Source: a virus (Monodnaviria > Loebvirae > Hofneiviricota > Faserviricetes > Tubulavirales > Inoviridae). Taken from it: DNA of 7,722 nucleotides. The stretch lies in the IMG/VR virus record IMGVR_UViG_2541047896_000002, one strand, 5' to 3'. Shown here in pieces: positions 369-560 of the stretch (position 1 is its first letter; every line of letters begins with the position of its first letter). Below the pieces are notes generated by a model. That model had not been told where the DNA came from. It worked only from the letters and a program-made list of their open reading frames with translations, and ran no database searches. The position numbers were made by a program, and so were the translations under genes.

Positions 369-560
369 TACCTATACCTTTTAGAGTGTGTCATTTGATC
401 TTTGCATAATGGCGTATTTTTGTTTAATCGTTTGACGTCCAGCTTATCTTAATTCCGATTTCGCAAGCTCTGCTGTTGTTCGTTTTTTCGCCGCGAAGCG
501 GTTCGGGGTTCTGTGACACCCGAACTTTAGTACGGTTTCCCGTATTTTTTCCCTGCTCGC

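Follow-up and report, generated by a model that had tools for sequence, protein, structure and literature searches.

A conserved three-hairpin element as the most likely replication origin of a widespread clade of filamentous phages with G2P-type initiators

Gene layout of the prophage and anatomy of the element

The window, i.e., the whole 7,722-nucleotide stretch of DNA analyzed here, represents the genome of a filamentous (inovirus) prophage of ~7.5 kb, and prophages found in E. coli chromosomes share 97% identity with its positions 1-7548. On the plus strand, the gene for a replication initiator (873-1988) is accompanied by small DNA-binding and coat genes and by the genes for an adsorption protein, a Zot-type assembly ATPase and a secretin. 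The initiator gene, rep, encodes a G2P/gene-II-type protein of 371 amino acids that matches the Pfam families G2P_X_C (1.5e-24) and Phage_CRI (1.8e-4)—the families of the Ff gene II protein—and displays 80% identity to the Rep protein of phage If1. Two genes are located on the minus strand, at 102-368 (88 amino acids) and at 561-749 (62 amino acids, with no Pfam match), and both are likewise annotated by RefSeq in a 97%-identical E. coli prophage. The smaller of the two separates the element described below from rep, a place taken by a small minus-strand gene in most relatives, and the larger one occupies a variable slot, filled with different genes in other loci, between the element and an attP-like hairpin. 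This attP-like structure (1-105, plus strand) is a long, forked hairpin with two inverted dif-like sites that forms the left end of the prophage (-31.2 kcal/mol, z = -7.1), and it is probably a CTX-type single-stranded attachment site; the same sequence also adjoins hipA at the chromosomal dif locus in one of the other loci (L138). Directly 3' of the secretin gene lies a long branched hairpin (7395-7555, plus strand) that holds two more copies of the heptamer GCGAAGC, at 7458 on the minus strand and at 7480 on the plus strand, and that is a candidate for the packaging signal and/or the true minus-strand origin of the phage.

The non-coding gap between the two minus-strand open reading frames (102-368 and 561-749) contains an element of ~60 bases, at 483-550, which consists of three hairpins on the plus strand: a mini-hairpin (H1), a stem-loop (H2) and a variable palindrome (H3). 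An earlier note on this DNA had placed a GCGAAGC heptamer at 493-499 and a stem formed by GTTCGGG (501-507) and CCCGAAC (519-525) in this very gap, and both the location and the bases proved exact, the two arms of the stem being reverse complements of each other. The element begins with a T-run (483-488), and a T-rich stretch (TTTTC or TTTGC) precedes H1 in most relatives. As read directly from the sequence, H1 (491-501) is a mini-hairpin with a GNA triloop, CCGC-GAA-GCGG (CCGCGAAGCGG), and H2 (501-525) is formed by the GTTCGGG/CCCGAAC stem around an 11-nt loop, GTTCTGTGACA, at 508-518. Since G501 is common to both structures, H1 and H2 abut and could stack on each other. H3 (529-546), an additional third hairpin that is absent from the earlier note, is the palindrome AGTACGG-TTTC-CCGTATT, with the core TACGG at 531-535, the loop TTTC and the complementary CCGTA at 540-544; it is followed by a second T-run (545-550) that is common, albeit not universal, among relatives. 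We propose that H2 could be the nick-site hairpin of the viral-strand origin, and that H3 could act as a Rep-binding repeat and/or as a packaging signal. A further open reading frame running across the element (424-642, minus strand, 72 amino acids) was dismissed because it overlaps the annotated gene at 561-749 and because the element is conserved in non-coding contexts.

Judged inside the window alone, neither the heptamer nor the 7-bp hairpin rises above chance. Counting both strands, the window holds five copies of GCGAAGC and nine of GCGNAGC, as compared to 3.75 expected, and one of 200 shuffles reaches nine; short inverted repeats of 7 bp are common as well, with 32 such pairs in the window. 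The mini-hairpin pointed out in the earlier note does fit the d(GCGNAGC) motif at 493-499—with its G-C/C-G stem, its GNA loop and its tolerance for any base at N—but its occurrence in the window is not unusual. Folding of positions 470-570 as ssDNA, a check that the earlier note had named, yielded -13.1 kcal/mol as compared to -8.15 +/- 2.13 for shuffled sequences (z = -2.3), a modestly better value, and the complementary strand of the same interval folds about as well; the special stability of the GNA loop lies outside the model of ViennaRNA. That the feature is real follows instead from its conservation, from covariation in H3 and H1, and from compensatory changes in the stem of H2.

Conservation and covariation of the three hairpins

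When the whole window was compared by megablast with 50,697 phage records, a single region was matched: positions 486-549 correspond, with 87% identity, to part of the "major intergenic region" of If1, a 1.2-kb segment that carries no finer annotation. A more sensitive search detected the core of the element also in an Alteromonas filamentous phage, in human-saliva inoviruses, in lemur-gut viruses and in a V. cholerae record. CTXphi proper, whose initiator RstA belongs to a different family, was not among the phage matches. A search of Rfam with the whole window at E <= 10 gave no match in 480-560, and a full-text literature search did not find the sequence of the element. To our knowledge, hardly any cis-acting sites of filamentous phages have been mapped outside Ff and a small number of phages of Xanthomonas and Vibrio.

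The element is also widespread in bacterial genomes. A match of ~55 nt was found in 686 of 5426 complete E. coli genomes, on chromosomes as well as on plasmids, and ~440 plasmids in PLSDB match the element. Five copies with unrelated flanks are near-identical across CGCGAAGCGGTTCGGGGTTCTGTGACACCCGAACTTTA, apart from a single substitution, a single insertion and a C/T difference. Scans with exact and with degenerate patterns located the element in 31 phage-sized IMG/VR contigs (a count that leaves out one chance-like match), and a scan of species-representative genomes returned 61 stretches, a handful of them chance-looking, that span the Enterobacterales, Vibrionaceae, Alteromonadales, Pasteurellaceae, Aeromonadaceae, Oceanospirillales and other groups. 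When all searches were pooled, 85 contexts with distinct flanks were obtained, and about ten of these are CRISPR spacers or matches that look like chance. The hairpins that the earlier note had picked out from a single sequence are, therefore, kept in If1 and in ~85 contexts across the Gammaproteobacteria. Moreover, their orientation is fixed, with the element lying on the virion strand, i.e., the strand that bears the bulk of the coding sequence, in 26 out of 26 and in 7 out of 7 phage-sized contigs.

The three hairpins vary across these copies, each in its own manner. H2 is near-invariant in the If1, plasmid and chromosomal copies and in ~85 contexts, with variation of the loop confined to its 5' side and a 3' end that reads (T/A)GT(G/T)ACA. 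Five phages with Rep proteins 58-60% identical to that of the window have the compensatory stems GTCCGGG/CCCGGAC and GTCCGAG/CTCGGAC—changes that identify the stem as a selected structure. H1, which shows covariation across relatives, retains its stem around a GAA, GCA, GGA or GTA loop, and is occasionally swapped for CCG-CTTG-CGG or CTCA-TCT-TGAG; the Pasteurellaceae, Colwellia and Alteromonas versions either lack it or have it displaced. H3 is fixed in position, 3-4 nt after H2, and free in sequence, with 35-36 different stems. A hairpin of at least 5 bp is nevertheless formed at this place in 84% of the sequences, as compared to 16% of shuffled tails; changes on both sides were seen in all seven modeled pairs, and none of 500 shuffles matched the observed score. 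The single internal mismatches in H3 comprise ten G.T, six A.C and five other combinations and reveal no wobble bias, which is as compatible with a double-stranded binding site as with a single-strand hairpin, if not more so. Rep proteins 86-92% identical to that of the window are paired with four H3 types, in a comparison that is confounded by physical linkage. The common enterobacterial version of H3 is ACCGTGG-TTTC-CCACGGT.

Initiators and carriers associated with the element

In the window, rep starts 347 nt downstream of H2, and its product is the presumed partner of the three-hairpin element. Ten Rep proteins encoded beside the element were tested; all have a match to Pfam G2P_X_C, in nine cases together with one to Phage_CRI. 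Among the 74 copies of the element with at least 1.8 kb of downstream DNA, 67 are followed by a G2P-type rep gene on the same strand. The association holds in the reverse direction, too: 28 loci were retrieved by Rep similarity alone, and the element was found upstream of rep in all 24 that had enough upstream DNA (19 canonical copies and five variants, the latter identified via a covariance model). The distance from element to rep is 372-766 nt in 18 of the 19 canonical loci and 2255 nt in If1, in which an IS605-type gene separates the two. H2 is identical even in phages with Rep proteins only 33-38% identical. Across 23 diverse loci, no other conserved k-mer was detected within 600 nt upstream or 2.6 kb downstream; likewise, no other hairpin with the geometry of H2 exists in the non-coding DNA of If1, and none besides the attP hairpin in that of the window. 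No competing candidate for a plus-strand origin was found around rep in the loci scanned.

A few carriers depart from this arrangement. One is a V. cholerae O139 record, where the gene of a Phage_GPA-type Rep begins ~470 nt downstream of the element. The element is also present in NZ_AP019859, a 2.7-kb rolling-circle plasmid with a Rep_1 initiator, bases 1377-1515 of which display 80% identity to the minus-strand origin of M13/IKe, and a complementary-strand origin is, therefore, already present in this plasmid. On the same strand, 146 nt 3' of the minus-origin-like stretch, comes the element—the position occupied in Ff by the plus origin—and the layout is reminiscent of a natural phagemid. 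In the chromosome of this strain, there is a related prophage, the element of which has the same rare 12-nt loop variant as the plasmid. In two plasmids, the element is found 56 nt after a plus-strand TIR-domain gene, and Rep-less units between Xer-type sites carry it together with SIR2, TIR or STM4504-family genes. We also considered the element as the end of an ISNCY insertion sequence and rejected this assignment, as no inverted copy exists at the other end; the ISNCY-associated loci also keep the attP-like hairpin region of the window beyond the variable gene and are, therefore, relatives or remnants of prophage left ends.

A comparison with the origins of Ff phages and IKe highlights both likenesses and differences. 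In M13, the stem arms GAGTCCAC and GTGGACTC enclose the loop GTTCTTTAATA and are directly followed by TTGTTCCA-AAC-TGGAACAA; in IKe, the same arms enclose TATGTTTAATA and are followed by GTTGCA-TTT-TGCAAC, with both hairpins annotated as viral-strand origin. The element presents the corresponding order of GTTCGGG, GTTCTGTGACA and CCCGAAC, then TTT, and then the H3 palindrome. In both cases, the structure is located on the virion strand, in non-coding DNA and upstream of a G2P-family initiator, and it consists of a stem of 7-8 bp, an 11-nt loop, a second short palindrome within 0-4 nt and A/T-rich DNA thereafter. The loop of H2 starts with GTTCT, like that of M13, and matches the latter at 8 out of 11 bases (only 5 out of 11 in the case of IKe). 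The loop of the M13 nick hairpin covers positions 5774-5784, and gene II protein nicks M13 between 5781 and 5782, inside this 11-nt loop (PMC11765958). By contrast, the 3' half of the loop reads GTGACA or GTTACA in the element and not TTAATA, an extra GNA mini-hairpin is placed directly 5' of H2, a small minus-strand gene separates the origin from rep, and the phage described here is a dif-integrating prophage, unlike Ff and IKe. The M13/IKe origin had no BLAST match in the window or in If1, and the covariance model of the element does not recover the plus origin of M13 or IKe, its best matches in these phages being terminator-like hairpins.

Other replicons offer more distant parallels. The double-strand origin of the pT181 family combines a nick hairpin conserved family-wide (IR-II) with a divergent specificity palindrome (IR-III)—the same logic as in the element—although these are plasmids of Gram-positive bacteria with Rep_trans initiators, unlike the phages that carry the element. 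In the filamentous phage phiLf-UK, a 120-nt fragment contains four stem-loops, of which a nick hairpin and a GCGNAGC-triloop hairpin are both needed for replication, and the packaging signal, an adjacent hairpin of 20-26 nt, has a GC stem and a loop in which T and C bases are conserved (bioRxiv 10.1101/2023.12.30.573655). This case does show that a plus-origin cluster can include a GNA mini-hairpin, and, in its light, H3 might serve for packaging as well. Both phiLf/phiLf-UK and the phages studied here have a compact, ~100-nt cluster of short hairpins in an integrative filamentous phage. However, phiLf uses an initiator of the HUH type that has a CTTG nick motif (Pfam REP_ORF2-G2P/Rep_1), and not one of the Phage_CRI plus G2P_X_C type, which makes the relationship one of analogy and not of membership. 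In addition, the phiLf cluster lies inside gene II, its hairpins come in an order unlike that of the element, and the two share no sequence homology except for the octamer AGTGACAC, maybe by chance. Finally, the priming sites of G4, St-1/alpha3 and RSF1010 ssiA contain extraordinarily stable GNA/GNNA mini-hairpins (PMC13037366). The element resembles the origins of these phages and plasmid ssi signals in being a hairpin cluster of the ssDNA phase that includes such a mini-hairpin; it is tied to one Rep family, whereas primase-dependent complementary-strand origins are tied to the host alone.

Origin function and alternative explanations

Taking together the observed anatomy, conservation, covariation, strand and Rep-family linkage, we suggest that the element is most likely the origin of a widespread clade of filamentous phages with G2P-type initiators, If1 included. 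More specifically, we regard 483-550 as, on balance, probably a plus-strand rolling-circle origin module, with H3 possibly also acting as a packaging signal; this reading is favored by the linkage to G2P-type initiators, by the geometry shared with Ff/IKe and by the layout of the Rep_1 plasmid. Initiator-specific origins, moreover, usually pair an invariant nick hairpin with a variable palindrome next to it, a layout that H2 and H3 fit. For nicking, the nick position, binding by Rep and the roles of H1 and H3, we infer the following scheme. On the double-stranded replicative form, the binding site of the G2P-type initiator (873-1988) would be the H3 palindrome or a site beside it, and its cut in the plus strand would fall within the 11-nt H2 loop, with a nick predicted between G515 and A516 (GTTCTGTG^ACA) by alignment with GTTCTTTA^ATA of M13. 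The 3'-OH at the nick would then prime rolling-circle synthesis, and the H2 regenerated on the displaced strand would be cut and re-joined, releasing a unit-length circle. H1, as a DNA-only GNA mini-hairpin of presumably very high stability, would come into play in the single-stranded form, where it may either keep the site folded and free of SSB or serve the start of the complementary strand. A parallel for the latter role may be seen in Ff, the minus origin of which is located immediately 5' of the nick, with the minus-strand primer starting only ~25 nt 5' of the latter. H3, in turn, could have a second role as a short hairpin for packaging, like that of the Xanthomonas phage phiLf.

Several points stand against a plus-strand origin. 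Homology to the Ff/IKe origin is undetectable, and the likeness consists of geometry and loop bases. Two unrelated initiators (Rep_1 and Phage_GPA) also accompany the element, and a Rep-specific origin should not cross families—unless these copies are parasitic or remnants. The identity of H2 in spite of such divergent Rep proteins is unusually strict for a Rep-specific site, H1 resembles the DNA single-strand hairpins of priming sites, and the linkage between element and rep could stem from proximity and common descent, not from function. The earlier note had read its two hairpins as replication structures: the part of this idea that stands is the presence of virion-strand structures in a fixed orientation, including a GNA-type H1, whereas its specific assignments to a minus-strand origin or a terminator came out weaker.

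The folded hairpins might instead be recognized on the SSB-coated virion strand by DnaG primase, the PriA primosome or RNA polymerase, yielding the primer for the replicative form—the main alternative, which we consider possible, if doubtful. The orientation of the element, always on the virion strand, agrees with such a role, as does the variation of H1 mainly at the N of GNA, a signature of DNA single-strand hairpins as at G4, St-1/alpha3 and RSF1010 ssiA (PMC13037366). Furthermore, we keep this alternative under consideration because three rolling-circle initiator families (G2P, Rep_1 and Phage_GPA) accompany the element, and sharing across families is what a host-dependent signal predicts; the near-identical H2 over several bacterial orders could, likewise, mirror a conserved host enzyme. 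The hexamer AAGCGG, which is common to PriA assembly sites, is included in CGAAGCGG (494-501), but it is lost in the GCA, GGA, GTA, CTA and CTTG variants of H1, and H1 itself is absent in some lineages. The G4-type start CTG is present in the H2 loop of the window, yet it is unconserved, with CAG, TAG or CCAG in its place in several lineages (loci L032-L038 and the Shewanella, Colwellia and Marinobacterium copies), and the element is unrelated to the G4 origin of complementary-strand synthesis (G4 3970-3998). As for the Ff minus origin, the M13/IKe intergenic regions match NZ_AP019859 and not the element of the window or If1, and this Rep_1 plasmid would already be served by its own Ff/IKe-type minus origin. 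Plasmid F, which carries several ssi signals, has no H2-like site. A portable host-dependent signal would be expected to occur with many Rep proteins or ssDNA replicons, yet nearly all copies with sufficient downstream DNA (67/74) go with one Rep family; in addition, H3 lacks a wobble bias, and a minus-origin role would leave the Rep clade without a recognizable plus origin. For the element as a whole, then, the minus-strand origin or priming role put forward in the earlier note is weakened by the G2P linkage, the plus-origin geometry and the unconserved CTG, whereas H1, at least, may have a minus-origin role.

Two further functions have been weighed for the hairpins, the first of which, packaging, could co-exist with an origin function; as an explanation of the element, we judge it unlikely. 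Its model would be the packaging hairpins of Xanthomonas phages, which measure 20-26 nt, combine a 7-8-bp GC stem containing CCG(C/T)G with conserved T and C positions in the loop, and directly adjoin origin hairpins. The enterobacterial H3 holds ACCGTG and a T/C loop, in line with this model, and a plasmid with a minus origin plus the element would amount to a natural phagemid. H3 differs freely, however, among phages with similar structural genes; the Vibrio and Colwellia versions, and also that of the window (AGTACGG), are off the Xanthomonas consensus GGX(A/-)CCG(C/T)G; and, at the place where Ff/IKe have their packaging signal, If1 has a long perfect hairpin directly after gene IV and the window has the hairpin after its secretin gene. 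A packaging function would, besides, leave the conservation of H1 and H2 unexplained. Very improbable, in our view, is a terminator or insulator, in which H3 and its T-run would stop plus-strand read-through into the module for regulation and replication, or the hairpins would end the upstream minus-strand gene. A consensus scan does recognize 529-546 together with TTTTCCCTGC as a plus-strand terminator-like site, the best M13/IKe matches of the element model are a hairpin plus T-run just after gene VIII (with the IKe site annotated as a potential terminator), and the location of the element past a TIR-domain gene in two plasmids points the same way. On the minus strand, however, no T-run follows any hairpin and there is, therefore, no intrinsic terminator for 561-749; with the plus-strand H3 as the only terminator-like site, the suggestion in the earlier note of a terminator for the upstream minus-strand gene finds no support. 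As to the plus strand, no annotated gene of this strand lies directly upstream in the window prophage, many Vibrio and Colwellia copies lack the T-run, and the invariant 25-nt H2 and the GNA hairpin would be left unexplained.

A broader and rather speculative reading, which we rate as improbable but worth stating, is that of a portable, self-contained ssDNA origin cassette, possibly uniting a nick site, a complementary-strand start and a packaging hairpin in ~60 nt. Unrelated replicons would capture such a cassette to ride resident filamentous prophages, and candidates for capture of this kind are the Rep_1 plasmid with its Ff-type minus origin, the GPA-type Vibrio element and the Rep-less, Xer-flanked SIR2/TIR/STM4504 units. 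A sharper variant of this reading would make H1 and H2 a new class of host-primed minus-strand origins across the Gammaproteobacteria. If the preferred interpretation as a plus-strand origin is right, the element would provide a 60-nt origin marker for the whole Rep clade and, with it, a cheap way to find prophages and their remnants; it would also supply a defined fragment for phagemids and helper systems of non-Ff phages, with a nick position open to direct testing. Moreover, a plus-strand origin at this place would explain the recombination joint found at the element between the attachment/cargo and replication modules. This joint adjoins the slot that holds SIR2-, TIR- and STM4504-family genes, and these families are known from anti-phage defense.

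The element at the joint between phage modules

Comparison of phage pairs (the window with L028, L018 with L044, L012 with L044 and L035 with L030) revealed that the left flank is shared through H1, the mini-hairpin, and H2, the 7-bp stem with its 11-nt loop, and that the sequences diverge from H3, the variable palindrome, onward, or vice versa; between L035 and L030, the switch point lies within the H2 loop itself. Phage pairs that are alike on one side of H2/H3 and different on the other argue that the element is, as judged from sequence, a recombination joint—with an attachment/cargo module on one side and a regulator/rep module on the other.

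On the rep side, the region of phage If1 annotated as the "major intergenic region" contains an ORF of about 62 amino acids on the minus strand (L001 1570-1770, corresponding to about 5115-5315 of If1), which ends just 3' of the element and mirrors the small gene at window 561-749. We also found that the annotated ORF348 (L027 6052-7086) encodes an IS605 OrfB/TnpB-type protein (Pfam OrfB_IS605, 4.6e-33), and it is this gene that accounts for the 2.2 kb separating the element from rep in If1. In the window, an inverted repeat at 809-864, CTTAGTTTCTCAG ... CTGAGAATCTAAG, extends across the space that separates rep (starting at 873) from the divergently oriented gene 561-749 and is likely an operator over the rep promoter region; in Rfam, it returned only a spurious match to a miRNA family.

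The probable attachment-site hairpin and the variable gene slot

The left end of the window prophage (1-105) carries an inverted pair of dif-like sites, GGTGCGCATAATG... and a partner at 77-104. Together with a GC-rich stem at 35-68, both sites are predicted to fold into a long forked hairpin (-31.2 kcal/mol, z = -7.1) that resembles the single-stranded attachment site of CTX-type phages. The same structure (L138 812-905) adjoins hipA at the chromosomal dif locus of strain 16F5M1D1.

In many plasmids from E. coli, Salmonella and Klebsiella, and in E. coli chromosomes (L002 1878-4716, L004 2483-5282, and L042 and L043 2498-4061), a variable gene slot is bounded on one side by this attP-like hairpin region (25-91 in the window) and on the other by the element (485-552 in the window). 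At these loci, the slot is occupied by a gene of the SIR2, TIR-domain or STM4504 family; a decayed ISNCY transposase gene and a dif-like site (GTGCGCACAATCTATCTTATGTTAAAT) come after it in at least L002 and L004. Such units may represent Rep-less, Xer-associated cargo units or prophage remnants.

Plasmids, CRISPR-like arrays and unusual loci

The 2.7-kb Rep_1 rolling-circle plasmid NZ_AP019859 (L003) bears a stretch (1377-1515) that shares 80% identity with the minus-strand origin of M13/IKe, with the element located 146 nt downstream (1661-1727). This copy has a 12-nt loop variant that is also seen in the prophage resident in that strain (L138 1250-1320), and the plasmid may be a naturally occurring phagemid. 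Relatives of this plasmid are present in E. albertii (NZ_CP117653) and on a contig labelled Pseudomonas brassicacearum (L082).

The conserved element also appears to be a target of host CRISPR arrays: CRISPR-like repeats, e.g., GTTCCCCGCAGGCGCGGGGATAAACCG at either side, enclose H2 and a few flanking bases as a spacer in Zobellella taiwanensis (L078 about 4925-4949) and Shewanella profunda (L085 694-718 and 4605-4629).

The clearest exception to the linkage between the element and G2P-type initiators is the locus of V. cholerae JS9803 (AF416590 about 3685-3865; L039 2440-2620), where direct repeats of ~35 bp, GTAGCGCGCCAGTGTTTGAGCG(C/T)TAGCGAGTT, flank the element and a non-G2P initiator gene (Phage_GPA, 1.3e-82) starts about 470 nt past it. 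At least five copies lie within a single region of Salinivibrio sp. ES.052 (contig NZ_FSRI01000003.1; L051, L062 and L064), and two pairs of copies are spaced by exactly 3649 nt, which suggests that a 3.65-kb mini-unit containing a G2P-type rep is repeated there in tandem.

Hairpins following the secretin gene

Immediately 3' of the secretin gene, the window contains a long branched hairpin (7395-7555) with two further GCGAAGC copies, at 7458-7464 on the minus strand and 7480-7486 on the plus strand; its position makes it a candidate for the packaging signal or for the actual minus-strand origin. In If1, too, a hairpin with a perfect 18-bp stem comes straight after gene IV (L001 1297-1335).
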